Below the pieces are notes generated by a model. The model worked only from the letters and a program-made list of their open reading frames with translations, was not told the DNA's origin and did no database searches. The translations under genes were made by a program, and so were the position numbers. This document shows positions 14,468 to 30,788 of a DNA stretch of 64,000 bases, piece by piece. Source of the stretch: Candidatus Zhuqueibacterota bacterium (lineage in GTDB: Bacteria; Zhuqueibacterota; QNDG01; JABMRT01); assembly GCA_013202295.1 (NCBI GenBank), contig JABMRT010000292.1:12486-76485 (forward strand), read 5' to 3'. Within the stretch, counting starts at the first letter, position 1. Each line of letters begins with the position of its first letter.

Positions 14468-14586
14468 AAATGGGAACCTATAACGGCCAGGCTCTGAGGC
14501 GCGGCCAAATGATCGCCCAAAGATTCCTATCTTTGGGTGTAATAAGCTGGAGGATTCTATCCTCCCCAAAAAAATTCGATCAAATT

Positions 14587-15279
14587 TTAGAAAAACGTTT
14601 TAAATCCAAATACAAATCTTATTCTTGAAGGATATATCGGATCGTCATTGTTTTCTCCAAAAAATGAATCTTTTTCATCTGTATATCCCAAAGTGACACA
14701 CTCATTTTCTGTGAGCCAAAATTCAATATCATTACCATACCCATATACCATTCGTTCATCTGTAATATTATGATCATTATTTTTTGCCGGAATTGTATAC
14801 ATCGCTTTTAAATGCCAGGAAAAACTTATAAAGTTTAAAAGAACTGGCGAACCGAAGGCAATTTTCCCATAAACTCCATAACCGGATGATTTATAAAAAG
14901 TCAAATCATCTTTAAAAACAGTCTCATCATTAAACATTTGCACACCAGTACTTATTCCAAATCTATAATCTTTCCTTTTTCCAATATAATCTCTGGTTAA
15001 TGATGCCCATGGTTTTTTACTTGTTCTAAACATATAACCTATTTCAAAATTTAAAGTATAATGAGTGCCTGTTTTAGCTCCTAAAAATAAACCAGATCCC
15101 CAATTTAAAGCATCACCTGGTGCATCAGAATTATTATCAACTTGTTCAGTATAGATTTTATCCAACCTTGTTTCAAGTGAATCAATTTTCTGCTGTAGCA
15201 TTTCGTAATTATCTTCTGCATATAAATTAGATAGCCATACAATACTGAATAAAAATATGATTGTACTTTTCGTCTTCAT
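14587..15279 (-). CDS. AT-rich hypothetical exported protein (possible small beta-barrel), beginning right after the last attC
   Basis: Signal peptide, short coiled coil, aromatic-rich strands and terminal Phe; a spot count gave 25% GC. Confidence 0.7.
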   Translation of the reverse strand: MKTKSTIIFLFSIVWLSNLYAEDNYEMLQQKIDSLETRLDKIYTEQVDNNSDAPGDALNWGSGLFLGAKTGTHYTLNFEIGYMFRTSKKPWASLTRDYIGKRKDYRFGISTGVQMFNDETVFKDDLTFYKSSGYGVYGKIAFGSPVLLNFISFSWHLKAMYTIPAKNNDHNITDERMVYGYGNDIEFWLTENECVTLGYTDEKDSFFGENNDDPIYPSRIRFVFGFKTFF

Positions 15280-15305
15280 TTTTTCTCCCTTATTTTCGTT
15301 TTCAT

Positions 15306-15425
15306 GTATAACGTTTGTTTGACCGGTTGAAAAACAAATGAATATGCCCTTAAAGAAGTGTTTCCAATAACCTGTAATAGAAAAGAAGTAACGTTTTTCA
15401 ATCCGCGTTGAAACATAGGTTATAC
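15306..15425 (-). mobile_element. Integron attC site (attC-3)
   Basis: Minus strand: R'' GTATAAC-CTATG-TTTCAACGCGGATTGAAAAAC ... GTTTTTCAACCGGTCAAAC-AAAC-R' GTTATAC; 120 bp, downstream of a co-oriented gene. Confidence 0.8.
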
Positions 15426-15492
15426 AGTGCCGGCCAAATCCTGTTCATTAATGTCTTATACTATTTTTTTAATTAATTTGTCTACAATACTT

Positions 15493-16386
15493 CTAGTGCC
15501 CTGTAGGTCCATCAATACATATAATGACTTTTACAGGTAGATGGTCCGATCCCACAATATCTTCTTGTCCGGTAGAAGTCCATTGGTTCTCAACGCGACC
15601 GATGTCGTCAATTAATTCCACGCTTCCATCTGTGGGTATCCAAATAAAATCTACCCCTTCTCCATACTGTGCGTAACCTTTATCTTTAAATCTTTGAGCT
15701 TCATTACTATTTGCACTTGCATTAAAATCGCAGGTGAATATATGAGGATAAGCTTGTTCGTCATCTGCTATATTGAAAATTTCCGTAATCTCGTTATACC
15801 TGGTGGTAGTATTCTCATAATGAAGATGAAAATCATAAAGAGTTAATAATGTTCCTCCTCCAAGATCAACATCTATCCTTAAAAGTTCGTCATCTCCTGA
15901 GGGCATCTCACTTTCATCATAATAATGACTGTAGGTGATCGGGAACTTGCTAAACGCACCCAGCCAGTGCCATCTACCTTTGTTGGGACAGAAATAATAC
16001 ATTCCTAATCGCTCAGCTAATTCTGCCATGATTTCCGGACTATGATCATCTATGCCGAAACCAGAACCAGTATTTGGTCCATTAGAATTTTCCTGGAGAC
16101 AAATTACATCTGCGTCCAGCGAATTTAATACATTTTCCCAGAAATCATAAAATGCCAAGCCATTAGCTACTATGCTCATATCCGGCACCCAATCTTTTTC
16201 CATATACGGTCCACTGGCGCTCCCGGAGCCTGCCCCTCCATGCCCCAGCCAATGTTTAATATTATAGCTTACTACTTTGACTTCTGTACTCTCTTGACCA
16301 TTTACTGTAAATGGAAAGAGGGTAAAAAGTAATAACCCGGCTGATCCCAGAATTGTTGCCACCATTTTTTTTCTTTTTCTTATCAT
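15493..16386 (-). CDS. Endonuclease/exonuclease/phosphatase (EEP) family protein, cassette-borne
   Basis: SYNIK, LQE, FHLH, CDFN, VDFI and SDHLP motifs; N-terminal signal/TM; start MIRKRKK at 16386 after GAGAGG. Confidence 0.85.
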   Translation of the reverse strand: MIRKRKKMVATILGSAGLLLFTLFPFTVNGQESTEVKVVSYNIKHWLGHGGAGSGSASGPYMEKDWVPDMSIVANGLAFYDFWENVLNSLDADVICLQENSNGPNTGSGFGIDDHSPEIMAELAERLGMYYFCPNKGRWHWLGAFSKFPITYSHYYDESEMPSGDDELLRIDVDLGGGTLLTLYDFHLHYENTTTRYNEITEIFNIADDEQAYPHIFTCDFNASANSNEAQRFKDKGYAQYGEGVDFIWIPTDGSVELIDDIGRVENQWTSTGQEDIVGSDHLPVKVIICIDGPTGH

Positions 16387-16593
16387 TTTGACCTCTCTTT
16401 TCAAAACGCAATATCTCCATTGCCATCTCACGCGATTATGGTTACACTTAAATTTGACATCCACACAATTACAGATGCCACTATGGCATAGCAAGATATT
16501 CTATTCATAATTTTACTCTTATTATAATCTAAATTTATAAATGTCTACCAAGTCTTTTTTTCACAGGGATATATGAATAATATTCTTCCATTC

Positions 16594-16691
16594 CCATAAC
16601 GTCTGTTTCAGGGGATTTAAACGCTCGACAAAACATCAAAATGCGAAGAAAGTGGACGCGTTTAAATTCCGACTCCAACCGCTGGTTATAC
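16594..16691 (-). mobile_element. Integron attC site (attC-2)
   Basis: Minus strand: R'' GTATAAC-CAGCG-GTTGGAGTCGGAATTTAAACGC ... GCGTTTAAATCCCCTGAAAC-AGAC-R' GTTATGG; 98 bp. Confidence 0.85.
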
Positions 16692-16844
16692 GCGATGAAG
16701 CCAAAAAATTACACCATAAGCATGAACGTTGAGTATATGAAGCTTTGGGAATTTCAAAATACCCTACTTTCAAATCCCTATGTCCTTTATTTACATTTAC
16801 TTTCGATTCACCACGTATATGTGCTACATGATTGGAAATCTCTA

Positions 16845-19649
16845 TTATTTATTTTTCTCTCTGTTTTCTAAACGATCTTCATCCTGTTCCTTGCTTTCGC
16901 GAATCATATCCTCCATATTATCAATTTGGGGAGACTCTTTAATAGCTTTCCAATCAAATTTTTCATTAAAAGGGTCGAGTGCTTTTTGAGGATCGAATAT
17001 CCTGCTATCTACCGATAAAGCATCGTATGGTTTGTAGTCAGGATAAGTTGTAAAAAAGTCAGCCAAATCCGTAGCCCCGGCATCATATTGATTTAAATAT
17101 GGCAGGCCCAAAATATTCCAGAATGATTTAAACAAACTGCCAAAACTATAATGTACATGACTAACATAGTCTTTTTTTACCCAGGGAGAAACGAGCATAA
17201 GAACACTGCGATGAGCATCAATATGATCAACGCCGTTTTGTGCGTCATCTTCTGTAATAACGATCAACATATTCTTCCAATAAGGTGTTCGTGAGAGATA
17301 TTCTACAATACGACCGACAGCTAAATCATTATCTGCCATATAGCTTTCCCGGAAAGGATACCCGGCATCCGGACGATCGCCCGCTCCGTGGTCATTTGGA
17401 ATTATTGCTGTAATAAATTCCGGCATAGTATCCTTGCCCATAATCCATTTCTCATCAAATTCTTTTATAAACTGATCTATTCTAAATTGATCCGGAATTG
17501 CCATGTTATAAGTCGGGTACATTTTAGAGGTCCATTCATAAAGGGGCTGTGGCATTGGGTAATTGATATACTGCCTATTTCCGGAATATTTATATTCAGC
17601 TTTATAAAGTGCCGGTTCAAACATTATACTAAAACCAAAATTATAAAATTTCACTTTATTACGCTTTAAATGATCCCACATAGAACCTGCTTCATTATAA
17701 TCTTCCGGATAAATTGCTCCTGCTGATCCATTCATCGCAAAAACACCGGGTGCATTTGAGTTTTCCCGATAATTGCGGTTACCTCCATAACTAGCTGCGG
17801 TTGATGTCTCACACCACTCATTAGGGTATGTGTTTACCAACCAGCGGTGGCCATCAGCTGAAACATCGGAATCCACATAAAAATTATCTGAAATGGCAAA
17901 TTGGCTGGCTAGAGCCAAATGGTTAGGCATTACCGTTGAATTTGAAACTGAGTTCGTTTTATTTCGATTTGAAAATGTCGCTCTTTTACCATATCGCGCA
18001 AGTGCTGAGTCACCTTCGCCTTTTTTAATTTGCCCGAAAACTTCATCATAGGTTCTGTTTTCCTTCGAAATAAACACAATGTGACGTATTGGACTAACTT
18101 TTTCCCCGGGGAATAATGGAATGGGATTATTTTCCCTGTTTTTAAAAACCAGGTCATCGGCTTTAGTAAAGTTAAAGTTGTTCGAAATGACCTGTTTTGT
18201 CATTTCCTTTAATTGTTTATCACCAGGAATATCGACTACCTGAACGGTTCCTTTCATTAACGAACCGATGTAACTTCCTACCGATCCCTGGTCAAAAGTT
18301 GCTCCTCCATTAGGGCCGCTGCCATAACCCTTAGCGTTGGCAATGATTAATTTTTTTCCATCATTGCTCACTTTAACTTTTGACGGAAACCAGCCTGTTG
18401 GAATATGTCCCGAGACTTTTTGATCTGAAACATTAATAACAGCAACAGCATTTATTCCCGATTCAGCTACATACAATCGTTTTCGGTCGGGGCTTAAGGC
18501 TAAACCAAAAGGAATTACTCCACGAAACTGCCTTATTCGATCATCAGGTTTAAGGTAGATTGTATTGACCACTGTATCCTGTTCCATAGAAATAACCGAG
18601 ATATTATCATTGGTTCCATTGCTGACGAATACATATTTATTGGTTGCAACAATTGAGTTGGGGCTGGATCCTCCAACAGCCGGGATATCTTCGACTAATG
18701 CTCCAACTAGGTGCCCGGTTTTAATTTTGGCAGCAACTATTGGATTTATTGAATCCTCAAGATTAATAGCAAATACTGAAAACGCCTCAAGAGAATTTAG
18801 ATCACCCAGACCGGGAATTACTAATGTATCATTTTCTATCCCCTCTATCATCTCTTTTGAGCCATAGGCAAAAGCAGGATAATCAATTGGCTTTACCTTT
18901 GATTCATTCGCATTTCCATCTTTTATCAGTGCATACTCAAACATTCCCACGTTGGCTACATAAGCCATCTTTTCATCAGGAGATAGACAAATCCCAAATG
19001 GATATCGTCCTACAGGAACTGAGTGTTTAAGAGTTTTCGTTTCTGTATCCAGGACAACCATTCTAAAACCTATCTGATCCACAGCATAGAGCGTTTTTCC
19101 ATCCTTCGTTAATTTAAGATCGCCTATATAGCCGTGAGTATAATCCACTTTTTCAGAAATAAAAGAGCAATCTATAGTTCCCTTTTTTCCTCCGGAATTG
19201 ACATCAAACAGGTATATCTTGTTCTCTTGCCCTCCAGCAACATAAATTGTTTGATTGTCAGGAGATATTGCCAACCCCATAAACACCGAAGCCAAAACAC
19301 CTTTGTCAGTAGATGGACCTGGAGGTATCTGTTGTACTTCAGGATTTTGCGATAAAATATTGCGAACAATCGTAATTGACAATGGACTGGTTCCTGAATT
19401 GGCTGTAACCGCAGTATTACCATCCGGACTTAGTGCTAATCCGTATGGATGTGGTGCCGTTACTAAACTTTTCCCTGCTGGAGTAATGTATCTTCCATTA
19501 GGAATAACAGTTTTTCCGGTTTTATCAATTTTTGTGAATTTATTTCCAGCAGGTGCTGACGCTATCCAGAGTGTTTTATCCTTTGAATTATTTTGTAGGC
19601 TGCAACCAGAAAAAGGTAGCATTATTAAAAACAGAATTATAGTTTTCAT
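16845..19649 (-). CDS. YncE-like beta-propeller / alkaline-phosphatase-superfamily phosphoesterase fusion lipoprotein, cassette-borne
   Basis: Lipobox FSGC after MKTII (19649); YVTN-like propeller repeats (P.GLALSPDG..LYV); KENRTYD..FG and SADGHRW phosphoesterase motifs. Confidence 0.88.
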   Translation of the reverse strand: MKTIILFLIMLPFSGCSLQNNSKDKTLWIASAPAGNKFTKIDKTGKTVIPNGRYITPAGKSLVTAPHPYGLALSPDGNTAVTANSGTSPLSITIVRNILSQNPEVQQIPPGPSTDKGVLASVFMGLAISPDNQTIYVAGGQENKIYLFDVNSGGKKGTIDCSFISEKVDYTHGYIGDLKLTKDGKTLYAVDQIGFRMVVLDTETKTLKHSVPVGRYPFGICLSPDEKMAYVANVGMFEYALIKDGNANESKVKPIDYPAFAYGSKEMIEGIENDTLVIPGLGDLNSLEAFSVFAINLEDSINPIVAAKIKTGHLVGALVEDIPAVGGSSPNSIVATNKYVFVSNGTNDNISVISMEQDTVVNTIYLKPDDRIRQFRGVIPFGLALSPDRKRLYVAESGINAVAVINVSDQKVSGHIPTGWFPSKVKVSNDGKKLIIANAKGYGSGPNGGATFDQGSVGSYIGSLMKGTVQVVDIPGDKQLKEMTKQVISNNFNFTKADDLVFKNRENNPIPLFPGEKVSPIRHIVFISKENRTYDEVFGQIKKGEGDSALARYGKRATFSNRNKTNSVSNSTVMPNHLALASQFAISDNFYVDSDVSADGHRWLVNTYPNEWCETSTAASYGGNRNYRENSNAPGVFAMNGSAGAIYPEDYNEAGSMWDHLKRNKVKFYNFGFSIMFEPALYKAEYKYSGNRQYINYPMPQPLYEWTSKMYPTYNMAIPDQFRIDQFIKEFDEKWIMGKDTMPEFITAIIPNDHGAGDRPDAGYPFRESYMADNDLAVGRIVEYLSRTPYWKNMLIVITEDDAQNGVDHIDAHRSVLMLVSPWVKKDYVSHVHYSFGSLFKSFWNILGLPYLNQYDAGATDLADFFTTYPDYKPYDALSVDSRIFDPQKALDPFNEKFDWKAIKESPQIDNMEDMIRESKEQDEDRLENREKNK

Positions 19650-19835
19650 ATGTTTTATTAAAATCATCGTTTTCACGTTTGAAATCCAATGTTTGTATGT
19701 ATTCATTGTGTTTATCCTCTCAATTTAGCAATATTAACACAATCGTTAATATTGTTCTTTTACAATATATATTAATACTATTCAAAAAAACCAGCAAGAT
19801 GATTCTTAATTCTAATAAAAGATTTTTGATACAGC

Positions 19836-19934
19836 GTATAACATCTGTTTCAGCGGTCACGAGCCAAGAGCAAGTATCCCGCAAGTTGAGTTTAGAATTC
19901 CATGTTAGCGATCCGCTGCAAACACGGGTTATAA
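19836..19934 (-). mobile_element. Integron attC site (attC-1)
   Basis: Minus strand: R'' TTATAAC-CCGTG-TTTGCAGCGGATCGC ... GTGACCGCTGAAAC-AGAT-R' GTTATAC; 99 bp. Confidence 0.85.
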
Positions 19935-20277
19935 GCCCACCTAAAGTGAATGACGTCTCTTTCGTTTCAAAATAAAAACAATAGCTCAAAATCTCAATAT
20001 TATTTCTGCTGAATTAAATTCTTTTTAGGTCCGGGACAAATACAAAAACTCAGCTCTTTCGGTTTCAATTCAATAGCCAGACTGATTGAACCCTTTGCCC
20101 AAAGTACCTTTCACCTTCAACCTGAACAGGGAGTGATTCAGGGGTATGGGTTTATGACCTCTTCCCCCAATCTTTGAGGTTCAGGGGATGAGGCAGTTTA
20201 TTGATTTTGCCTTCGACCTTTCAACCTTTTCAAAGAACTCGGATTTGCAGAGCGTATTGCTGTATCAAATTATCTAA

Positions 20278-20296
20278 CTTATAACCTAAGTTTATC
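20278..20296 (-). mobile_element. Array-start recombination core (attI-like or relic)
   Basis: Minus strand GATAAA-CTTAG-GTTATAAG. The GTTATAAG matches the attC-1 R'' (CTTATAAC), and the TAAA-N5-GTT spacing resembles attI1. Confidence 0.45.
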
Positions 20297-20322
20297 GACC
20301 AATAATTATCATCCCGAGGTGA

Positions 20323-20460
20323 TCAGCTAAAACCATCAATAATTTCCAAATAGTAACGTTTCCCATTTGAACCCTTATATGGAAATAATGCAGGCACATA
20401 TTGTCGGTATCTCATATAGGGTTCTCCAAATTGTTCAATTAACTCTTTTTCCTCAGGGTT
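20323..20460 (-). pseudogene. C-terminal fragment of an isoprenylcysteine-carboxylmethyltransferase (ICMT/PEMT)-family gene
   Basis: Reads PEEKELIEQFGEPYMRYRQYVPALFPYKG...FS* with no start; abuts the stop of the upstream gene. Confidence 0.65.
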
Positions 20461-20481
20461 GCTGTTTAATTTTGCACTCTT

Positions 20482-21279
20482 TTAAAATTGCCGGGCCCAT
20501 TGAAAATCGAACAGAGGCAGCAACAAATGCCATTGGGTACCAAAAGGATATTCCGCGTAGACAAGTTTGTAGCCCAGACACATTTGAAAGCGTGTACTTT
20601 TTCGCCATATAATCAATCCCTTATGTTCAAACGCGAAATTTTCCTCTGCTTTCGGCACCAGAAAAATATCAGAATCCACAACATAATGCCAGCGCCTAAC
20701 AATCAATCCTTGAAGGTCAATCCCCATCCTAAAATTGTAGGTATTATAAAACACTGCCAGTCTCGGGAATATGAGAGGCAGATCGATAGTGGTTCGCTCA
20801 TCAAGGTCTTCAGATGTATAAGCGAATGTCAGTCCTGCTTTTGCTGTCACAAGTAATCGCGGGTCGAACCGTTTTGATACCAGAATTTCATTGTGGAAAG
20901 CTACCATATGGGGCATGGTGAATTCAGGTGAAATCAGCCCGCCAATGCCTTTTTTGGAAACCGTACGCAGTAATGGGGTCGGATAATAAAAACTGTGCCT
21001 TGTCGCCCAGTCATATCCTGCGATTGCAGAGTGCTTCCATTTAACACTCAGATTGGGCATCAGGATATTCGGCAGCACATAAGTGGACAATTCCAGAGAT
21101 TCAGAAAGACCATAAGCAGCGGGTTGAAATATGCCAAATTCCAGACGATCTTTCGGAAGCAAATAGGCTGTCCCTGATGACCAAAGAGAAACATCGCCTT
21201 CATTTATTTCTCCTGCCATAATGCAAGGTATCCCCCACATGAACAGGACGAGTCCGATCAGGATTTTAGAGATCTTCAT
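20482..21279 (-). CDS. Hypothetical exported/outer-membrane protein
   Basis: Signal peptide MKISK..., terminal Phe; ATGA overlap with the upstream EEP gene. Confidence 0.7.
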   Translation of the reverse strand: MKISKILIGLVLFMWGIPCIMAGEINEGDVSLWSSGTAYLLPKDRLEFGIFQPAAYGLSESLELSTYVLPNILMPNLSVKWKHSAIAGYDWATRHSFYYPTPLLRTVSKKGIGGLISPEFTMPHMVAFHNEILVSKRFDPRLLVTAKAGLTFAYTSEDLDERTTIDLPLIFPRLAVFYNTYNFRMGIDLQGLIVRRWHYVVDSDIFLVPKAEENFAFEHKGLIIWRKSTRFQMCLGYKLVYAEYPFGTQWHLLLPLFDFQWARQF

Positions 21280-22367
21280 TCTGGCACCCCCCATCTGACA
21301 CTAATTGGTGTATGGTCGGACCAATCAGTCGCTTCCTGATGTGTGGAGTCGGAACCCGCAATCCACTGGTAATTGGTAAACAAATAATCCAATTTCTTTT
21401 GCCAGAAACCATCCCAGTGGGATGTATTCGTAAAATAGCGCTCTTCGTTTGTCAGATATTCATCCAGAGGAACGGCAGATTGATACGTATCGTATAGATC
21501 CTGAAGCCAGGTTACTTCCTTGGTGAAATCGCAGCCTTCCATTTCGTTAACATCTTCACCGAAACAACGATCCTCAAGACAGAAATATGTTTTAGTCGCT
21601 CCGGGCGGTAGAGTATTCAAATCGCCACCGGCAACAAAGTAGGCACCCGCTTCGTGTAGTTCATCGAGCTCTGCCTTGAATATATCGATATGTTTCATTT
21701 TAGTGTCGTCCTTGGCAAAGGCAGAGGTATGGACATTTACGGCATAAAAATTGGGAACATTGGGGAGGTCAATTTTTACTTTCAGAATATTCCGTCGCAA
21801 ATAGAAATACTTGGTAAGTTCATCCTGATCGCCGCGCTGAGGCAGAGGGATACGGATGGCTTCAAGAATGGGCCACCGAGATAACACCGCATTGCCCATG
21901 TTCATACGTCCCAGTCCGTCGCTGGGGATGAACTGAACTTTCCAGACTGAAGCAAAAGCTCCGTAATTAAAATAGGTATGGTCCAGCAGCCACTGCATTT
22001 GATCGATATATGCCGACCGTTTAGATTCAATATCGATCTCGTTGATGATCAGGACGTCGGGTTGAATTTCATTGATTTTGTTGGCTATACCTTGCAGATG
22101 GGTGAACACTTCATCTTTTGTGAGAATCACACGGTCGCCGCAGGAATCCCCGAACCAGGGGATACGACCAGCGCCAAAACGGATGTTCCAGGTCATCACG
22201 GTGATAGTTTCAACCGTGCTGGGTGGTGCCGATTTCTGTTCGGCTGTATAAATGACCGCATCACCTATTTCCTCAAATTGCTCAACCCAGGGTTCACATC
22301 GCAGCCAGGTGATGGACACGACCAGCCATACAATGATCATGAATCGAGGATTCTTAAAAGAAGTCAT
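21276..22367 (-). CDS. Endonuclease/exonuclease/phosphatase family protein
   Basis: TWNIRF, INEID, NVHT, GGDLN, KLDYLF and SDHTP motifs. Confidence 0.9.
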   Translation of the reverse strand: MTSFKNPRFMIIVWLVVSITWLRCEPWVEQFEEIGDAVIYTAEQKSAPPSTVETITVMTWNIRFGAGRIPWFGDSCGDRVILTKDEVFTHLQGIANKINEIQPDVLIINEIDIESKRSAYIDQMQWLLDHTYFNYGAFASVWKVQFIPSDGLGRMNMGNAVLSRWPILEAIRIPLPQRGDQDELTKYFYLRRNILKVKIDLPNVPNFYAVNVHTSAFAKDDTKMKHIDIFKAELDELHEAGAYFVAGGDLNTLPPGATKTYFCLEDRCFGEDVNEMEGCDFTKEVTWLQDLYDTYQSAVPLDEYLTNEERYFTNTSHWDGFWQKKLDYLFTNYQWIAGSDSTHQEATDWSDHTPISVRWGVPE

Positions 22368-22631
22368 TATTGATCTCCTTTCTCATTAATTCACCGCGAC
22401 CCCGGGCTCCGCCTGGGATCGACCAAGAATTGAGTGACTTCCATAAGGTTCCCGGTTGGAGACTGGAAACCAGGTAAAATCCATAGATAACGAAAATTAT
22501 ATTCAGCGGGGAACACAGATTTTCCGCCTAAAATACAATGATCAATGCCATGTAATAATATGAAATTCTAAGAATAATTTACGAAGACTTGATGAAAATG
22601 CAAGGAGTTTTTTAAATCCCTCTACCAGAAC

Positions 22632-22664
22632 AAACCTGACAGTTTTTGAAGACTTGTCAGGTTT
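22632..22664. repeat. REP-like palindrome (AAACCTG family), likely the original tolC terminator
   Basis: AAACCTGACA...TGTCAGGTTT 10-bp perfect stem; a related copy lies at 34844-34875. Confidence 0.65.
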
Positions 22665-22674
22665 TTAAATCTGT

Positions 22675-22802
22675 CTACTCCGCATACGAAGAAACAATAC
22701 CGCCCGTGAGACGCAGCAATTCTGTATGGGCCTCGATCAATCGGTAAATAGATTCCAGCCGTCCGAGAGCTGCGTTCAAGTAAATTAACTGGACATCACG
22801 GA
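22675..22802 (-). repeat. Orphan copy of the last 128 bp of the tolC-family gene (direct repeat of 23980-24107)
   Basis: Encodes RDVQLIYLNAALGRLESIYRLIEAHTELLRLTGGIVSSYAE*. It has 12 mismatches to the tolC copy, 11 of them synonymous; 22760-22802 is identical. Confidence 0.97.
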
Positions 22803-23839
22803 TTGACAATCACTTTGGTCCGCTCCTCACCCCCCATCACCTTCAACGCTTGATGAATTTCGCTTAGCGGGAAGCGGTGAGAGATGATCTTCTCTGTATC
22901 CACCAGCCCGGAGTCCATCAGGCGGATGGCACGGGACATTGCCAGCGGCGTGGTGCCGAAACTGGCATCCATGCGCCCTTCCAAGAAATGTGTGAGACCG
23001 CCGTCCAGCTCAAACGTCTCGTGGGTAGTGATGCCAAAGACGTTCCACCGGGTTCCCCGCCGCCGCAGGCTTGACATCAACTTGACAGCCTCGATCGGCC
23101 CCGCCGCTTCGATGATCAGATCAGGGCCGCCAGGGATGATCTCATAGACGCGCGATTTGGCATCTTCGCCCACGGGATCGATCGCGTGCGTCGCACCCAG
23201 CGCCAGAGCCTGCTGCCTGGCATAAGGGCTGGGATCTATGGCGATCATTTGCGCCGCCCCGGCGGCTTTTGCCACCATCTGGCATAACAATCCCATGCTG
23301 CCCGCCCCGATGATGACCACGTCGTCCCCGACACGCATCTCGCTATACTGGACCACACCCTTCCACGCACCAGAGAGTGGCTCGGTGAGAGCCGCGGCAT
23401 CGAATGACAGGCCGGCGGGCTTGAGAAAGAGACTGTTCTCGGTGGTGCACATGTACTCGGCGAACGCCCCAGGCCAGACGTCGTCCTGGCCATCCCCACC
23501 GGTAACGAAACCGTGCATGCAATAGTGGGTGTTGCTGGCACGGCAGTGCTCACAGACCCCGCAATAGCCCATCGGCTGGCAGATAATCTCGTCCCCTTCC
23601 TTGAAGTGAATAACACCCGGCCCCACCTCAGCGATGATGCCACTTGGCTCGTGGCCGACGATGGCAGGGAAGGTGACGTTCGTACGGACTCCTTTGACCG
23701 CCTTGTAGTCGGTCCCGCAGATGCCGCATGATTTTACACGCACCACTACGGTACCGGGTGCTGCGGGCTTGGGACGGGGCACTTGTTCCAATCGCAGGTC
23801 ATTGAAATCGTGTAAGACTGCAGCAAGCATCGTTTCCAT
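22796..23839 (-). CDS. Zinc-dependent (MDR) sugar-alcohol/threonine-type dehydrogenase, GC-rich
   Basis: CGICGTD, GHE, structural-Zn CGVCEHC..C and GAGSMG motifs. Confidence 0.93.
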   Translation of the reverse strand: METMLAAVLHDFNDLRLEQVPRPKPAAPGTVVVRVKSCGICGTDYKAVKGVRTNVTFPAIVGHEPSGIIAEVGPGVIHFKEGDEIICQPMGYCGVCEHCRASNTHYCMHGFVTGGDGQDDVWPGAFAEYMCTTENSLFLKPAGLSFDAAALTEPLSGAWKGVVQYSEMRVGDDVVIIGAGSMGLLCQMVAKAAGAAQMIAIDPSPYARQQALALGATHAIDPVGEDAKSRVYEIIPGGPDLIIEAAGPIEAVKLMSSLRRRGTRWNVFGITTHETFELDGGLTHFLEGRMDASFGTTPLAMSRAIRLMDSGLVDTEKIISHRFPLSEIHQALKVMGGEERTKVIVNP

Positions 23840-23928
23840 TTCTATACACTCCGAAAAAAGTATACTTCGGCCAACATATTTATATCGTGACGTACTATAT
23901 TGTAAATGGTTTTTAACATCCCTATTTC

Positions 23929-23956
23929 GTAGGGGTGGACGGCCGCCCGCCCTTAC
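23929..23956 (+). repeat. GTAG-type REP element
   Basis: GTAGGGGTGGACGGCCGCCCGCCCTTAC; near-identical copy at 30669-30696. Confidence 0.75.
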
Positions 23957-23979
23957 ATGAGTATCATCGGAATTAAATT

Positions 23980-25278
23980 CTACTGCGCATACGAAGAGAC
24001 AATCCCACCCGTGAGTCGCAACAGTTCAGTATGGGCCTCAATCAACCGGTAAATAGATTCCAATCGTCCGAGAGCTGCGTTCAAGTAAATTAACTGGACA
24101 TCACGGAAGTTGAAGGAATTTATCGCACCTGATTTAAATTTCTCTTCAGAGATTTGAAGATTGAGTTCAGCCGTTTCCAGCGCTTCCTGTGAAATTGAAA
24201 GGAGTTTTTCGCGGACATTATAAAGATCGAGTTGGGCAGCCAGACGATTGGAAAGACTATGTTCAATCGACGCGATCTCAACTTCGCCGATTTCACGATC
24301 CAGTTTGGCGATATCGATCGCACGCTTGCGATTGCCACCATTAAACAGATTCCAGTTTAAAGTCAGTGTGCCATACGCATTGCGTGAATCGCTATCGGCC
24401 CAGTCCGAGATGTCCGTTTTGGAACGAGTGAGGCTGGTTTCGGCACCGGCGCGGAGCGACAAACTGGGCGACCACGCACTTTTTGAAAGTTGAACTTGTG
24501 AATTGAGAAGCTGCTGTTGAATGAATTTATTTCGCAATTGTCGATTGTCCGCGAGCATGCGTTCACGCAGCAGATCGAGTGAATAGAGCTGCCAATCCAA
24601 TTCGAACGGATCAGTGAATGCATAGCTCTGATCTTCAGAAATGCCCATGAGATAATTTAAATCACGCACCGCATTGCGCGCTGTGGTCTCCTGTTGAAGG
24701 AAACGGGCTTCATCCTCAAGCCAGGCGTTCTTTGCTTGAAGGACATCATAAGTAACCAATGCCCCAATTTCTTTTTTCTCAAGAACCTGCGTGTATCGAT
24801 CATTCGAAACCTGCCGCACCGTATCGAGCACTTGAAGCCGTTCATTTTGAAGCAGAACATTGTAATATGCCAGGATCACTGCCTGCATCGTCTGTTCTAC
24901 CAGAAGGGCAGTATTCCCGGCGGAAAGTTCTTCAAGCTGAGACAACTGCGCCTTTTGGATCCAAACCGAAAACCCCCTGAACAGCGTCCAGCTCAAAGTG
25001 GCACTGCCCAAGCCGCGCTGCTGTGTCCAATCATCGTCAGGATCAATGCTTTGACTCTGTGTACCGCTCGCAGACAAATCAAGGGAGGGGAGCATTCCGG
25101 CCTGGCCCCAGCTGTTATTTTTTTCAGAGATGGATTCATCCAGCTGGATCACACGAATATCATAATTGTTCTCAAGCGCCAGGGTAATCGCTCCGGAAAG
25201 GCCAAGTGTCTGTTGTGCGTGTAAATGTGTGGACAATCCAGCTATTAGAAAAAGGATAAATATATCAATCCGTTTCAT
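23980..25278 (-). CDS. TolC-family outer-membrane efflux protein
   Basis: Signal peptide, two OEP repeats (ALENNYDI..LPSLDL; WSPSLSL..WNLFNGG); third gene of the RND operon. Confidence 0.92.
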   Translation of the reverse strand: MKRIDIFILFLIAGLSTHLHAQQTLGLSGAITLALENNYDIRVIQLDESISEKNNSWGQAGMLPSLDLSASGTQSQSIDPDDDWTQQRGLGSATLSWTLFRGFSVWIQKAQLSQLEELSAGNTALLVEQTMQAVILAYYNVLLQNERLQVLDTVRQVSNDRYTQVLEKKEIGALVTYDVLQAKNAWLEDEARFLQQETTARNAVRDLNYLMGISEDQSYAFTDPFELDWQLYSLDLLRERMLADNRQLRNKFIQQQLLNSQVQLSKSAWSPSLSLRAGAETSLTRSKTDISDWADSDSRNAYGTLTLNWNLFNGGNRKRAIDIAKLDREIGEVEIASIEHSLSNRLAAQLDLYNVREKLLSISQEALETAELNLQISEEKFKSGAINSFNFRDVQLIYLNAALGRLESIYRLIEAHTELLRLTGGIVSSYAQ

Positions 25279-25331
25279 GGATTTTGCTCCGATAAAAAAC
25301 TGACTATTGGATTTCAACTTGATGGCATCCC

Positions 25332-28300
25332 CTATTCGATTTTACGTTTGGCATAAATGAGCGCGATTTCGACTTCTTCCGGTTCGGAATCTTCACCTGT
25401 CCAAAGTTTGTGCATCCATCGCCGAAAATCATTGAGCACATAAATCAGCACCGGAAAGAAAAGCAGGATGAAGAAGGTGCCGAACGCCACGCCATAGGCC
25501 AGACTGATCGCCATGGGGATTAAAAACTGTGCCTGATGACTGCTCTCAAGGATGAGAGGAAAAAGACCGATTGCTGTGGTCAAAGTTGTCAGAATGATCG
25601 GTCGCAAACGGGACTTGCCCGCCTCGGCAATCGCCAGCGAGACCTTCTTCCCTTTAGCGACAAGACTGTTATATCTGGAAAGAAAAACAACCGCATCATT
25701 AATAATCACACCTGAAAGCGCAACCATGCCCATTGCCGATAGAATGGAAACGGGCTTGTCATGAATCCAATGGCCCCAAAAAGCGCCGACCAGGGACAAA
25801 GGAATCATCGCCAGAATAATGAGAGATTGCTCCACACTCTTGAAATGGATCATGAGAATCAGCACGATCACGAGAAAAGCAAGTGTAAAATAGGTTTGGA
25901 GTTTGTCTACTGTTTGCATGCTCTCGCGTTGCTGCCCCTGATACAGCACCTGAATGGAGGGGTATTTGGCCTTAATCTTGGGAACAATAGTCGCGTCCAC
26001 TTGAGCCAGAATATCAGGCACTGAAGCATAAGGATCAAACAGATCTGCTTCAACGCGCATCTCACGCTGGCCGTTAAACCGGCTGATGCCTACCGGGCCG
26101 CGTTTGATTGTGTAATCAGCCAATTCGGCAAGTGGATATATTCCTTGCGGAGTTTTGATCTTCATCTGTTCGAGTTGACCGATATGACTGCGATCACTTC
26201 GCGGATACCGTACCCAGACGCGAATTTCATCTCGGTTCTGCTGCAACCGCTGCACTTGATGACCATAAAATCCTTGCCGGACCTGATTGGCTATCGCAGA
26301 TTCATCCAATCCCAAAAAGGTAGCTTCGGGCTTGAGTTTGAGGAGAATCTCTTGCTTGCCCTGAGCATTGTTATCCACAATATCTTTTAGAACCGGAAAG
26401 TTCTGAAGCTCAGTAATCACCATATTCTTGGCTGCCTCAAGTTCCTCCAGATTCCGGCTCATCAGGCTGATCGAAACCGGTGATCCCCAGCGATTGCGCC
26501 CCCCAACCGTATACTTTTCAGCCTCTGGCACCGAACCGATCTTTTCCTTCACCAATGCGGCAATCTGAAGACCTGTCAGATCAATATTGGTTAAATCAGT
26601 GGAGTAAACTACAAGGCGGCCGGCGTGTGCACCGCGTTCCTGACCACTGAATGCGTTGCCCACCTGAAGCCGGGTATCGCGCACGAGATCCTCATCACGA
26701 TCCATTTGAGATTTTAAATCGTCATTCACTTCCCAAACGGCTTCTTCAAAACGGTGCAGATATCGATAAGTCTGATCCTCGCCCGAACCGGGTACAAATG
26801 CAATATTAAGCTCAAAGCTGTCAAAATCCACAACCGGGAAATAGGTATTCTTGATAAATTCCCCGGCAAATAAACCGATCGTAATCAAGAACAGCGCAAC
26901 TGGTACGGCCATGAGAACTGCCCGCCATTGAATTGCCCAGAGAATGTACGGACCATAAATATGATCTCGAAGCCAGAGGATGGTATCTTCAATGACCCGC
27001 TTGACACTGTGTTTTTTCGCTTCAAAACGTTTTCGGTTCAGGACATGTCTGTTCCCCAAATGCGCGGGCAACACAAAGAAAGCCTCGACGAGGGAAAGCA
27101 GAAGAGACACAATCACAATGAATGCCATTTCCCACTGGCTTTCCATGTTGGTGCCCTGCAGGAAAAGCAGGGGCAAAAAGGCCACGACTGTTGTGGTCAC
27201 AGAAGTCACGACAGCCGGAAGCACCTCCATGGTACCATCCACTGCGGCGAGCATGTGTCCTTTGCCTTTTTCAAAATGCGTGTATATATTCTCACCGATC
27301 ACAATGCCGTCATCGACCAGAATTCCAATCACGAGAATCATACCGAAAAGCGAGACCATATTGATCGTGATACCGTACAGATTGGCGATAATAAACATTG
27401 CGAGAAAAGAAGCAGGGATACCCCAGGCCACCCAGAAACTCACACCGAATGAAAGGAAAAGTGTCAGTGCAATCACGACGAGGATAAAACCGATCAATCC
27501 ATTATTGATGAGTACCTGAAGACGGCTGTTTAGGATTTCTAAAAAGCTGAAATTAATTCGTAATTGCACACCGGGATTGGCCTGGTTGAACTCTTCGATA
27601 TAGGTCTTGGCAAATTTATCAATTTCTTCCAGATCTTCTTCTGGTAATTTTTCGATGGAAAACGTGACAGAAGGCTGACCGCCCCTGAAAGCGGGATAAA
27701 AACTTTCCGGCGCCTGCTTTTTCACAGTCGCCACATCACGGATACGTAAAAAACCGCCTGAAGGCGTACCACGCAATGCGATATCTGCGATCTCATCCGG
27801 ATCAGTACTGCGTGATCGCAGCCGAATCATCATCTCTTCTTCACTCGATTTTATCTGGCCGCCTGAGACATCTCGATTGTTATTCCAAACCGCATTGGCC
27901 ACTTCGATCAAGCTGAGATCGTACTGTAACAGATCCGCCTCACGGATTTCAATGCTGATTTCAGGAGAAGGCGCACCGCGCAAAGTCATCTGGGTAACGA
28001 CACCGGAATTCAGAAAATCATCTTCTATTCGATAGGCATAATCTTTCAGCGTGAAAAGATCGTCCGTACCGGAAAGGGTAAGGAACAGGGCACGCGACGT
28101 ATTGCGCCGTTTGGAGACAGTCGGCCGCTCCGCAGCAGAAGGAAATGCATTGATGCCGTCCACCGCATTCTTGACTTCCATCAGAGTCTCATTGATATCA
28201 TACATGCCTGTGGTTTCGATGGAAACGCGGGAGGAGTTCTCACTTGAAGTGGAGGTGATCTCCTTGATCCCGACAATGCCCCGTACTGCCTCTTCAACGC

Positions 28301-28499
28301 GGCTGGTGACACCTTCTTCCATTTCAATCGGAGACGCGCCTGGATAGGAAACCGAGATGGAAATGAATCGGGAAGACACTTCCGGGAAAAAGGATTTTTT
28401 CATGTTTCCCAGAGATAGCAATCCGCCAATCACAATAACAGCAATCACCAGATTGGCGTAAAAAGGAAATTTAACAAAGATACTAATTAGTTTTCGCAT
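25332..28499 (-). CDS. RND efflux transporter permease (AcrB/AcrD/AcrF family)
   Basis: 1055 aa; GILVDDGIVIGE and SRLRPIILTTLTT motifs; 12-TM pattern. Confidence 0.95.
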   Translation of the reverse strand: MRKLISIFVKFPFYANLVIAVIVIGGLLSLGNMKKSFFPEVSSRFISISVSYPGASPIEMEEGVTSRVEEAVRGIVGIKEITSTSSENSSRVSIETTGMYDINETLMEVKNAVDGINAFPSAAERPTVSKRRNTSRALFLTLSGTDDLFTLKDYAYRIEDDFLNSGVVTQMTLRGAPSPEISIEIREADLLQYDLSLIEVANAVWNNNRDVSGGQIKSSEEEMMIRLRSRSTDPDEIADIALRGTPSGGFLRIRDVATVKKQAPESFYPAFRGGQPSVTFSIEKLPEEDLEEIDKFAKTYIEEFNQANPGVQLRINFSFLEILNSRLQVLINNGLIGFILVVIALTLFLSFGVSFWVAWGIPASFLAMFIIANLYGITINMVSLFGMILVIGILVDDGIVIGENIYTHFEKGKGHMLAAVDGTMEVLPAVVTSVTTTVVAFLPLLFLQGTNMESQWEMAFIVIVSLLLSLVEAFFVLPAHLGNRHVLNRKRFEAKKHSVKRVIEDTILWLRDHIYGPYILWAIQWRAVLMAVPVALFLITIGLFAGEFIKNTYFPVVDFDSFELNIAFVPGSGEDQTYRYLHRFEEAVWEVNDDLKSQMDRDEDLVRDTRLQVGNAFSGQERGAHAGRLVVYSTDLTNIDLTGLQIAALVKEKIGSVPEAEKYTVGGRNRWGSPVSISLMSRNLEELEAAKNMVITELQNFPVLKDIVDNNAQGKQEILLKLKPEATFLGLDESAIANQVRQGFYGHQVQRLQQNRDEIRVWVRYPRSDRSHIGQLEQMKIKTPQGIYPLAELADYTIKRGPVGISRFNGQREMRVEADLFDPYASVPDILAQVDATIVPKIKAKYPSIQVLYQGQQRESMQTVDKLQTYFTLAFLVIVLILMIHFKSVEQSLIILAMIPLSLVGAFWGHWIHDKPVSILSAMGMVALSGVIINDAVVFLSRYNSLVAKGKKVSLAIAEAGKSRLRPIILTTLTTAIGLFPLILESSHQAQFLIPMAISLAYGVAFGTFFILLFFPVLIYVLNDFRRWMHKLWTGEDSEPEEVEIALIYAKRKIE

Positions 28500-28513: not shown

Positions 28514-29698
28514 CTATTGAGAAGCTGTTTCTATGGGCGGTTTTTGCAGAGAAGCAGGATCTTCGGCCTGATCCACACCCAGAATTTTAACCGGCGTATT
28601 CTCCATCACATTGATAAGCGGCTGTGTGACCACGTACACACCTGAATCAATCCCGCGGATCAGCACTGTAGTTTGATTCAACTTGACAACTTCGACTTGC
28701 TGGATCCTTAATTGCCCGTCAATCACTGTGAACACTTCATCATAATTAAATATTGTATTTCTGGGGATTTCAAGCACTTCGGTCACTATCCCCCCCTCGA
28801 ATTCTGCATTTAGATACTCACCTGCATACAGGGACAACTGACCGTTCAGAGGTACGCGGGCGAACACACTGCGGGATTGTGTGGCCACATCCACAAAATC
28901 GGAGATACGGGTCACTCGACCATGCCATACCCTCTCTTTGTCGATAGAAGCCAGTTGAACCGGATCATTGGGCCGAATCCACCCGGTACTTTCATTCCCG
29001 ACTGGAATCTCAACTTCGAGGGCATCTGTGGCAATCATCTTACCAATGCGCCCCCCCGTATTGGTATACGCACCGGCTTCGACATACACATCCAGAAATG
29101 CACCCTTAAACGGAGCAAGAATCGTATGTCGTGAAAGTTTAAGTTCAGCTTGTTGAACTGCGAAATATTCAGCGAGTACATTTCGGCTCGCCAGGAAAAT
29201 GCGTATGGATTCGGATTCATATTCCGGGAGCGGCGGCAATTCATTGTTTAGCTGAATCGAGTTGAAAAAAGATTGAAAGGAGGCGTACTGGTCTGGGAAA
29301 TCCACACGGATATCGGGGAGCAGATTGGCAATAGTATTCAGAAACTGACTTTTCTGAGCGCTCAAAGCCAGTTCAGCCTCATCCTTATAGATCGTTAGAA
29401 GAACCTGACCCTTCTGAAAATTCTGACCTTTTTTCAGAGGGACTTCTCCTGATTCCACACGTCCGGAAGCTTCAGCTACCAGCTCGACTTCTGCGGTGCT
29501 AACCACGCGTCCTTTGGCAATTACAGAGGAGAGAACATCCCCATAAGCAGCCATTTCAGCACGAACCCAACGATCACCCGGCACCGGCGGCCTGACCGGA
29601 AGGTCCTGCTTCTGAGCGATCAGCAGCCGCATCAGGCCGAAACTACCGAGGAGGATGGCCGCGATACTGCCAATAATAATACGCTGTCGTTTTGTCAT
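28514..29698 (-). CDS. RND periplasmic adaptor (membrane fusion protein)
   Basis: N-terminal anchor, VAEASGRVE..KKGQ..KGQVL lipoyl half, ILAPFKG. Confidence 0.92.
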   Translation of the reverse strand: MTKRQRIIIGSIAAILLGSFGLMRLLIAQKQDLPVRPPVPGDRWVRAEMAAYGDVLSSVIAKGRVVSTAEVELVAEASGRVESGEVPLKKGQNFQKGQVLLTIYKDEAELALSAQKSQFLNTIANLLPDIRVDFPDQYASFQSFFNSIQLNNELPPLPEYESESIRIFLASRNVLAEYFAVQQAELKLSRHTILAPFKGAFLDVYVEAGAYTNTGGRIGKMIATDALEVEIPVGNESTGWIRPNDPVQLASIDKERVWHGRVTRISDFVDVATQSRSVFARVPLNGQLSLYAGEYLNAEFEGGIVTEVLEIPRNTIFNYDEVFTVIDGQLRIQQVEVVKLNQTTVLIRGIDSGVYVVTQPLINVMENTPVKILGVDQAEDPASLQKPPIETASQ

Positions 29699-29936: not shown

Positions 29937-30263
29937 TTATGATTTCTTCTTTTTGGGCTTGGGTACAGGCAGTTCTTGTGCTGTAATTCTAACCAAATTA
30001 CTGATCCATTCCCGATCGTCAATTTTGTCTTCAATAAGAAAAGACAATTTTGCTCCCGGGTAGGCTGGCGCCTCGACGACATCTTCTATGAAGACTCGTC
30101 CTCCCTCAGTGGGTTTGATAAACAGTTGATTGTCGCAAATCAGTGCGACAACTTTCGCATTGCAATAAACCGCATACTCGCCAAACATTTTTTTGAATCT
30201 GATTTCACCTGCATCTTCTATCTGATCAACCACAAATTCAACAAAACTTAAATCTGATGCCAT
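29937..30263 (-). CDS. TfoX/Sxy N-terminal-domain family protein
   Basis: KKMFGEYAVYCN.KVVALICDNQLFIKP motif. Confidence 0.88.
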   Translation of the reverse strand: MASDLSFVEFVVDQIEDAGEIRFKKMFGEYAVYCNAKVVALICDNQLFIKPTEGGRVFIEDVVEAPAYPGAKLSFLIEDKIDDREWISNLVRITAQELPVPKPKKKKS

Positions 30264-30294
30264 TTTATTGCCTTTTTATTGTTTGATTTACCTT

Positions 30295-30782
30295 GTTCCC
30301 AGACTCTGTCTGGGAACAACAAAACCTGAATCTTATTGGGGTTCCCAGTCAGAGACTGGGAACCAGAGAAAATCCCTTCGGGAAACCGATATTATTTGTA
30401 TTTATCATATTCAATTGAATATTGATCGCGCCAGGGTTCTACCCTGGTGCGAATATTATGCGAGGATTCAATCCTCGCTTCTTTCGAGCCCAAAGGTGTA
30501 AACCTTTGGGCGATCAAGTCAAAAACTGGGAACCAGAGAATAATTCTGCAAACAACTGAGCGTCTCTGCTTAAAATGCAAATATTGATGTCGCACAAGAT
30601 GAATATAATCTGACTGAAATATAATAACACATTTTGGAAATGCAAAGTGTTTTTAGAACCACCATTTCGTAGGGGCGGACGGCTGTCCGCCCTTACATTC
30701 TTTATATAAATATTTTTCCGGATAACAGAATTGAAGGAATTAAAAAGAGAGAATGAGCACGGGCAGACTCTGCCCGTGCTCA
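30295..30782. repeat. Intergenic mosaic of seven short palindromes (BIME-like)
   Basis: Hairpins at 30295-30317, 30341-30363, 30431-30447, 30460-30478, 30488-30511, 30669-30696 and 30754-30782. Confidence 0.8.
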
Positions 30783-30788
30783 CAGATG

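Follow-up and report, generated by a model that had tools for sequence, protein, structure and literature searches.

Within a window of 64,000 nucleotides from a Candidatus Zhuqueibacterota bacterium (contig JABMRT010000292.1, positions 12,486 to 76,485; all coordinates below refer to this whole stretch), the last 128 nt of a TolC-family gene, here called tolC, are present twice, at 22675-22802 and 23980-24107, with a spacing of 1,305 bp. The copy at 23980-24107 is the end of tolC itself, and the other stands as an orphan behind a dehydrogenase gene, which is the sole open reading frame (ORF) of real size in the islet delimited by the two tails. The locus looks like a scar of recombination between related lineages at the edge of a variable region, and not like a new kind of mobile element. 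Its features, in the reading direction of tolC, are the following.

23980-25278, minus strand: TolC-family outer-membrane factor (OMF) gene, 432 amino acids (aa) from its ATG; a TTG at 25317 would give 445 aa.
23980-24107, minus strand: tail attached to tolC, with a 'B-type' end after the identical block, reading ...SSYAQ* and including the TAG (from the repeat alignment).
24065-24107, minus strand: identical 43-nt block, tolC copy (from the tail alignment).
23840-23979, minus strand: AT-rich spacer of 140 nt with a guanine-plus-cytosine (GC) content of 39%, from the tolC stop to the dehydrogenase start (from composition).
23901-23958, minus strand: 58-nt spacer module around a degenerate copy of a 28-nt palindrome, with a second copy at 30641-30698.
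22796-23856, minus strand: foreign segment of ~1.06 kb, made up of a ribosome-binding region (TTTCGGAG) and the complete dehydrogenase gene (from GC content and the limits of homology).
22796-23839, minus strand: coding sequence of a Zn-dependent medium-chain dehydrogenase, 347 aa, including the TGA (from Pfam).
22796-22802, minus strand: 7-nt microhomology joint TCCGTGA, common to the native dehydrogenase end AATCCGTGA and to tolC CTTCCGTGATG.
22675-22802, minus strand: orphan tail ('A-type'), reading ...SSYAE* in the tolC frame, with no tolC body upstream (from the repeat alignment).
22760-22802, minus strand: identical 43-nt block, orphan copy (from the tail alignment).
22632-22664, no strand assigned: hairpin just past the orphan tail, with a 10-bp stem, a 12-nt loop, a dG of -17.9 kcal/mol and a z of -2.3.

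An earlier note on this DNA had described two 128-nt tails lying 1,305 bp apart, identical over 43 nt and differing at 12 sites in the remaining 85 nt, and both parts of this description are borne out. A repeat finder returned a single 129-nt direct repeat (22674-22802 against 23979-24107, 91% identity), and the 64-kb window holds no other long direct repeat beside this pair. The tail alignment, read on the minus (coding) strand, has no difference in positions 1-43 and 12 differing sites in positions 44-128, a divergence of 14%; 11 of the sites are synonymous and the twelfth is the last codon (CAG/GAG, or Q/E). Beyond the stop codon there is a weak likeness of ~10 nt (TAGA[CAG]ATTTAA) and then none. 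The probability that at least 11 of 12 differences would be synonymous, at a synonymous expectation of 26%, is 4e-6, and the last 28 codons have a synonymous divergence (dS) of 0.77 beside a nonsynonymous divergence (dN) of 0.017, with a dS of 0 over the first 13 codons (NG86). Given 12 differences, the first 43 nt would be free of them with a probability of 0.0055, and an identical run of at least 43 bases would occur anywhere in the tail with a probability of 0.07. Judged by this pattern of substitution, both tails were shaped as coding sequence, in lineages already well apart from each other, and the identical block is a feature in its own right. The coding type of the divergence therefore rules out a simple tandem duplication of recent date, as the earlier note had argued. 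A programmed alternative C-terminus is ruled out as well: the two peptides are the same except for Q/E, and there is no invertase.

The tolC reading frame is intact through the attached tail to its TAG, and the Pfam family OEP (PF02321) matches the protein in two stretches (151 bits, E 4e-44). The gene stands last in an efflux operon on the minus strand, after genes for a membrane fusion protein (MFP, 28514-29698) and a resistance-nodulation-division (RND) pump (25332-28499), which match the Pfam families HlyD and ACR_tran; the same MFP-RND-OMF order is present in relatives. The window holds only one tolC-like gene, and the orphan thus belongs to no second intact copy. Just after the orphan the earlier note had placed a palindrome or terminator. 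The hairpin at 22632-22664 is there, but its T-run is on the plus strand, which is not the strand of tolC, and a consensus terminator scan did not flag it; the palindrome thus stands and the terminator does not.

The arrangement is very probably genuine. L001, a JGI contig of 4,472 bp, matches 20281-24752 at 100% identity and covers both junctions, and the exact dehydrogenase protein is recorded on four contig size classes of up to 87 kb. Two freshwater runs (X1 and X2) hold the region; k-mers of the junction from dehydrogenase to block occur in both, and the depth is even, with the islet equal to its flanks (~5-7x in X1, 7-9x in X2). The Logan contigs (k=31) of both runs are interrupted, as would be expected, at the 43-nt block. 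That study's third run (X4) yields a 225-nt contig (23949-24173) that reads from the spacer through tail and block into the body of tolC, unbranched and free of differences, and a sediment run of another study (X3) has identical pieces of the dehydrogenase and of tolC. The joint between dehydrogenase and tail cannot be an assembly artefact, because it has only 7 nt in common with tolC. Independent contigs, junction k-mers and even depth together make it unlikely, at the level of contigs, that two strains were assembled into a chimera, which the earlier note had named as a finding that would overturn it. Authenticity was judged from contigs throughout. These showed no joint of an excised circle or of an empty site, but a minority of either form may be present, since with a 43-nt identical block it would add no new 31-mers.

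The dehydrogenase matches ADH_N with 91.9 bits and ADH_zinc_N with 57.1 bits and aligns with its relatives across residues 1-347. It falls below every NCBIfam equivalog threshold, and its substrate is not assignable by that route. Because the gene has kept all of its domains and has its own ribosome-binding site, it is probably expressed, whether from the spacer or by read-through. Composition and the limits of homology both mark the segment as foreign. The gene has 60% GC, with a GC content at third codon positions (GC3) of 0.72 against 0.49 in tolC, in a window of 45% GC overall; along the islet gene the GC content runs at 57-65% versus ~45% in the flanks. The best matches among GTDB representative genomes are at 70-78% identity in metagenome-assembled genomes of Anaerolineae, Armatimonadota and Planctomycetota, and the nearest proteins in a set of 5.8 billion are two metagenome proteins of 89% and 86% identity, both encoded on contigs of 66% GC, with a YkuD-domain gene on one side and an unrelated convergent gene on the other. 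The contig of the 89% relative (L175) is 85% identical to the islet in nucleotides, only from position -17 before the ATG to the stop codon. Taken together, these matches suggest that the donor was probably GC-rich and Chloroflexota-like.

The GC contrast marks the islet as foreign, and the Pfam scans agree with the earlier note that it carries no recombinase. A search for the dehydrogenase beside tolC tails in other genomes, which that note had proposed, found nothing of the kind: there is no tolC near the 89% and 86% homologues, and none of the 80 GTDB dehydrogenase loci examined has a tolC context. At many donor-type loci (L057-L134, e.g. L063, L065, L073, L101 and L131) a second dehydrogenase-like gene follows directly after the first, its start overlapping the stop of the first (CC ATGA.., MKAIVNTGP...). 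Of this pair, the islet has the first gene only.

One end of the islet can be placed to within a few bases. At the start of the repeat, 128 nt from its end, tolC reads CTTCCGTGATG, and the TGA inside the common TCCGTGA is the dehydrogenase stop codon. This heptamer is native to the dehydrogenase end, as judged from L175, which reads AATCCGTGAGG, from the ...INP* ending of the family and from a rhizosphere contig (X7). The native end of the family is ...(I/V)NP*, with the codons AAY CCN TGA/TAG, and the X7 homologue, which belongs to the same GC-rich lineage, departs from the islet immediately after the TGA. Homology that ends at the TGA, the family ending and the divergence of X7 therefore place the joint inside TCCGTGA. 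Read from its letters, such a joint is the signature of a putatively illegitimate, microhomology-guided join, and its 7-nt overlap falls within the range of 3-10 nt reported for homology-facilitated illegitimate recombination (PMC6382021). The other junction lies inside tolC, where 43 nt are as in the orphan and are followed by a different allele, which extends into the spacer, ~10 nt beyond the stop codon. A block of 43 identical nt followed by 14% divergence would fit a crossover at tail position 43/44.

The allele on the attached tail has a counterpart elsewhere. A sister lineage in a groundwater run (X5) has a contig of spacer plus tail (23895-24045) that differs from the window at 6 of 151 positions (96% identity), and another lineage therefore has a tail of the attached type next to this same spacer. 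Of the 66 tail positions that this contig covers, 9 are informative; it agrees with the attached tail at 7 of them and with the orphan at the other 2. The X5 dehydrogenase contig (23603-23741) shows no difference over 139 positions, and three pieces of the pump gene differ at 10 of 151, 17 of 150 and 10 of 233. In other words, X5 departs from the window at 6 of 290 positions in the islet versus 37 of 534 (~7%) in the pump gene (Fisher p 0.003). There are no X5 contigs over 19.8-22.6 kb. The dehydrogenase contig also has 12 unaligned leading bases (23591-23603), consistent with a 2-nt insertion (CCTTGAGAAGTG vs CCTTGAAGTG), which could be a frameshift in the X5 lineage or a low-depth error.

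The spacer holds a repeated module. This 58-nt module (23901-23958) recurs in another intergenic region of the window (30641-30698) at 81% identity, and a search of the window with the module gave 2 matches against 0 expected by chance. The core of the module is a degenerate copy of the palindrome GTAGGGGCGGACGGCCGTCCGCCCCTAC; the window copies are at 23930-23957 and 30670-30697, in a window that is not from Chloroflexota. The 29-nt flank beside the palindrome is 72% identical between these two copies and is absent beside all 207 Chloroflexota copies of the palindrome (maximum 52%, mean 31%). Anaerolineales, a clade rich in this palindrome, is also the clade of the nearest named dehydrogenases. 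A candidate promoter (TTTACA-16 nt-TATAAA), read by eye only, is in the same place in both module copies; a consensus promoter scan flagged no site in the spacer, and promoter and terminator consensus scans of the spacer and of the stretch past the orphan gave nothing convincing.

Two further observations concern these repeats. In a scan of GTDB genomes that yielded at least 119 loci (L177-L295), Anaerolineales and other Chloroflexota carry the perfect 28-nt palindrome GTAGGGGCGGACGGCCGTCCGCCCCTAC between their genes as a stand-alone element in high copy number; each genome has many copies, whose flanks are not conserved. A second family of hairpins in the window (GGTTCCCAG...CTGGGAACC and TTGTTCCCAG...CTGGGAACAA) occupies the sites 22443-22477, 30296-30320, 30336-30370 and 30506-30540, clustered in the 525-nt gap 30264-30788 with one copy downstream of the orphan tail; it looks like a repeat of the host's own, of the repetitive extragenic palindromic (REP) type.

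Comparison with relatives places the islet at the border of a region that varies. The closest tolC proteins, from the set of 5.8 billion, are 78% and 76% identical, while GTDB genomes and JGI metagenome contigs offer at most 57% identity, and exact-protein look-ups returned no record of the tolC protein itself. The two closest relatives end in ...SSYME* and ...TSYLESK*, with an E like the orphan and not a Q. At the 12 variable sites, relatives agree with each tail about equally, and the synonymous sites are saturated. In the 76% relative (L173), the pump protein is 87% identical and a class-V aminotransferase 70% identical to those of the window. The interval from tolC to the aminotransferase gene is 9.4 kb in the window versus 2.5 kb of different genes in L173 (lactamase_B, rubrerythrin and DUF2520), which makes the 3' end of tolC the border of a variable region. 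No relative examined has tandem OMF genes after the pump gene. Beyond the islet, the region comprises the following features in the window.

14587-22367, minus strand: rest of the variable region, from tolC to the aminotransferase gene (from Pfam and the comparison with L173).
21276-22367, minus strand: EEP-family gene (from Pfam).
20482-21294, minus strand: overlapping partner of the EEP gene, 270 aa, with no family match.
Within 14587-22367, minus strand: a 953-aa protein, a second EEP-like gene and a 230-aa ORF.
13325-14569: class-V aminotransferase gene, the far border of the variable region.

The stretch from 14 to 21 kb has 35-41% GC versus ~46%. This low-GC block (14000-21000) holds the 953-aa protein, which is beta-propeller/phosphoesterase-like, the EEP-like gene and ORFs without a family match. 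In X3, contigs of up to ~66x are ~82-85% similar to the start of the 953-aa gene (19190-19608); as the window's own organism reaches only 2-3x in that run, an abundant relative carries a similar gene. The EEP gene and its overlapping partner form a conserved pair in KSB1/Calditrichota-like bacteria (75-86% and 58-85% identity), and elsewhere (L296-L303) the pair has unrelated neighbourhoods and is never beside tolC. As a marker of the ancestral neighbour of tolC the EEP gene proved uninformative, its nearest homologues (86-75%) lying in unrelated contexts.

Signs of a mobile element were looked for throughout the locus. Pfam scans of the islet and of 23 ORFs at 9.2-45.8 kb found no integrase, transposase or resolvase; the islet, the block and the dehydrogenase have no match in collections of phages, plasmids or viral contigs; the window contains no tRNA and no known RNA family; and there are no inverted repeats at the islet ends. 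An integron cassette, an insertion sequence and a transposon were each rejected for want of their features, there being no transposase or integron integrase gene in the islet or the 23 scanned ORFs and no inverted repeats at the islet's ends. The flanking repeat consists of 128 nt of coding sequence, unlike a short target-site duplication. Direct repeats with an identical core are present at both ends and would be equally expected from homologous recombination. As with integrative elements that supply a gene end, the ORF of tolC is left intact.

We hypothesize, with about even confidence, that a related, X5-like lineage of the same bacterial group was the source of tail positions 44-128, the spacer and the dehydrogenase, which would have come in through one homologous and one microhomology joint. 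In that lineage a foreign dehydrogenase piece of ~1.06 kb would have stood behind a short spacer downstream of tolC, within the lineage's own block. On one side, homologous recombination within tolC would have been resolved at tail position 43/44, with the result that tolC ends in the synonymously different tail of the other lineage. On the other side, the stop region of the dehydrogenase would have been joined illegitimately, at TCCGTGA, to the site 128 nt from the tolC end, and the recipient's own 128-nt tail would have been left as an orphan behind the new gene. The orphan tail would survive because the illegitimate joint lies upstream of the homologous joint on the recipient. No dedicated recombinase would be needed. 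Such an import would explain the 43-nt identity, as both copies would be of recipient type up to position 43; it would also account for an islet that resembles its X5 counterpart more than the pump gene does, and for the final E common to the orphan and the relatives. What the sequences show is the anatomy, the foreign origin, the letters of both junctions and the presence of the second tail type in a sister lineage; the direction of transfer and the enzymology are what we infer.

This reading has affinities with known routes of recombination. Homology-facilitated illegitimate recombination, described for natural transformation in Acinetobacter baylyi, Streptococcus pneumoniae and Pseudomonas stutzeri, combines a homologous anchor with a joint of 3-10 nt and depends on RecA (PMC6382021). 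The locus would resemble it, as far as sequence alone can tell, in having the homologous or homeologous tolC tail on one side and the TCCGTGA joint on the other, and the earlier note's mention of homology-facilitated capture from a related strain fits, through the 7-nt joint at the native stop and the X5 tail type beside the same spacer, and is the better supported of the two readings offered there. Campbell-type insertion-duplication is similar in that a direct duplication flanks the insert, the target stays intact if the fragment holds the gene end, and the loss is reversible and scarless. Unlike in such insertions, the islet has no replication or vector functions, and there is no sign of a circular form. 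Microhomology-mediated break-induced replication and template switching likewise produce an insertion with a duplication and a short microhomology at the switch point; these have been described mainly within one genome, and an incoming related template is an assumption here.

Several considerations weigh against the import. The geometry would need a second copy of the locus (a sister chromosome, or break-induced or template-switch replication) or a circular donor. The events of de Vries & Wackernagel (2002) and Prudhomme et al. (2002) are said to insert DNA with replacement or deletion of recipient DNA, as is classical for homology-facilitated illegitimate recombination, whereas 128 nt of recipient DNA are duplicated in the window; the duplication calls for an extra assumption. 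A simple reciprocal crossover of the Campbell type predicts two chimeric copies with differences on both sides, and in the window one side is identical, so that the parents would have to have been identical already over those 43 nt. The origin of the spacer is ambiguous: it could belong to the host lineage itself or have come in along with the gene. The evidence from X5 consists of a few low-depth contigs of 150-230 nt. No genome with an empty site or with the donor arrangement occurs in GTDB, the JGI contigs or the set of 5.8 billion proteins, and the closest tolC relatives, at only 76-78% identity, are too distant to polarise the synonymous sites, so that the direction of transfer is putative. 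The only hint of natural competence in the host is a small TfoX_N-domain gene (29937-30263) just upstream of the efflux operon; TfoX-type proteins regulate natural competence in other bacteria, and the gene proves nothing.

The transfer could instead have run the other way, with the attached tail, spacer and dehydrogenase native and the downstream genes (the EEP pair and beyond) imported. A linear fragment whose left end was the last 128 nt of a donor tolC would have been anchored downstream, for example in the aminotransferase gene, joined at TCCGTGA, and would have replaced whatever stood behind the dehydrogenase. We consider this unlikely, yet it is mechanically the simpler event: a linear donor, one anchor and one microhomology joint make a textbook mechanism that suffices, and only here would recipient DNA be replaced and not duplicated. 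It also accords with the odd composition of 14-21 kb (35-41% GC), with the variable interval from tolC to the aminotransferase, with the EEP pair being in unrelated contexts in other lineages and never by tolC, and with the lack of X5 contigs over 19.8-22.6 kb. What it leaves unexplained is the 43-nt identity beside a dS of 0.77, since later gene conversion is unlikely to start at such divergence. It further predicts that islet and pump gene are equally far from X5, and the islet is closer (p 0.003); that relatives end in E like the orphan, and not in Q, is a weaker point on the same side. For the earlier note's suggestion that the orphan is the displaced original, the relatives' E, the fit of a crossover at 43/44 and the closeness of X5 speak mildly, with this reverse direction as the alternative. 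A different origin for two coding-compatible tails would be a tandem tolC paralogue, the spacer being its promoter region and nearly all of it having been replaced by the dehydrogenase through two illegitimate joints. This accounts for the coding constraint on both tails and for a promoter-like spacer before the dehydrogenase, and needs no donor lineage for the tail. It is nevertheless very unlikely: relatives have no tandem OMF genes after the pump gene, the window has one tolC-like gene only, a dS of 0.77 beside a 43-nt identity is hard to get between old paralogues, and the X5 pattern is left unexplained.

The earlier note also raised the attP-borne replacement of a gene end by an integrative element. 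The model for this is the icd gene of Escherichia coli, in which e14 or phage 21 leaves the gene 3' end present twice, with an orphan icdC, and recombination restores a functional chimeric gene (PMC13626634). The likeness is close: the inserted DNA supplies an alternative end with mostly synonymous or conservative changes, the gene stays intact and the original end is orphaned. The islet could thus be a decayed site-specific element whose attachment site was the 3' end of tolC and whose attP bore a replacement gene end. The 43-nt block would be the att identity, and a deletion between two copies of TCCGTGA would have removed the integrase and left the cargo by attL. An identical block followed by a diverged, coding-compatible end is the exact product of such elements, and the dehydrogenase is identical to that of X5 over 139 nt despite a difference of ~7% in the pump gene, which is mobile-like. 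Unlike the islet, e14 is ~15 kb long, has its own integrase and is excised site-specifically after SOS induction; the insert in the window measures 1.3 kb, holds a single metabolic gene and lacks a recombinase, and one of its boundaries is a 7-nt microhomology at the cargo's stop codon and not an att arm. Neither the islet nor the 23 ORFs scanned at 9.2-45.8 kb contain an integrase, an excisionase or any other element gene; islet, block and dehydrogenase have no match in the phage, plasmid and viral-contig collections; the deletion would have had to stop precisely at the stop codon of a cargo gene that is itself intact; and the spacer is like a chromosomal module that lies between genes elsewhere in the window. 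These observations give the attP proposal no support, and we regard a decayed element as doubtful. An assembly artefact, in which two strains, or the chromosome and a small circle, were stitched together through the 43-nt block, has hardly any likelihood left. The k=31 graph is ambiguous at the block, the X1 and X2 contigs break there, and only contigs were inspected; against this, the joint of dehydrogenase and tail, with 7 nt in common with tolC, is present in contigs of two runs, L001 is identical over 4,472 bp across both junctions, the X4 contig is unbranched, four contig size classes exist, the depth is even across islet and flanks, and a circle of 1.3 kb that has no gene for replication would not be maintained at the copy number of the chromosome.

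We also considered, as rather improbable, that the 1,305-bp unit is a minimal, recombinase-free gene cassette that carries a copy of a conserved gene's 3' end and spreads its single cargo gene among related lineages by the homologous recombination of its hosts. If so, insertion would be additive, the target gene would remain unbroken and scarless loss would be possible, and the near-identity of the dehydrogenase despite ~7% divergence of the pump gene would reflect repeated spread and not a single accident.

Import from a related lineage, which we favour, leaves the current understanding of gene transfer unchanged: the locus is a natural example of a kind of event already known, the additive, recombinase-free capture of a gene at the edge of a variable region. 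In the host, tolC is intact, with Q for E as the last residue the only change in its protein, and the islet would be lost and a normal tolC regained, without a scar, if the 43-nt repeats recombined. Junctions of this sort are usually erased or unrecognisable, and the locus can serve as a worked example for finding, at the borders of variable regions, gene gain that needed no recombinase. It is a clean natural record of how a useful foreign gene can be added to a chromosome without the machinery of a mobile element.

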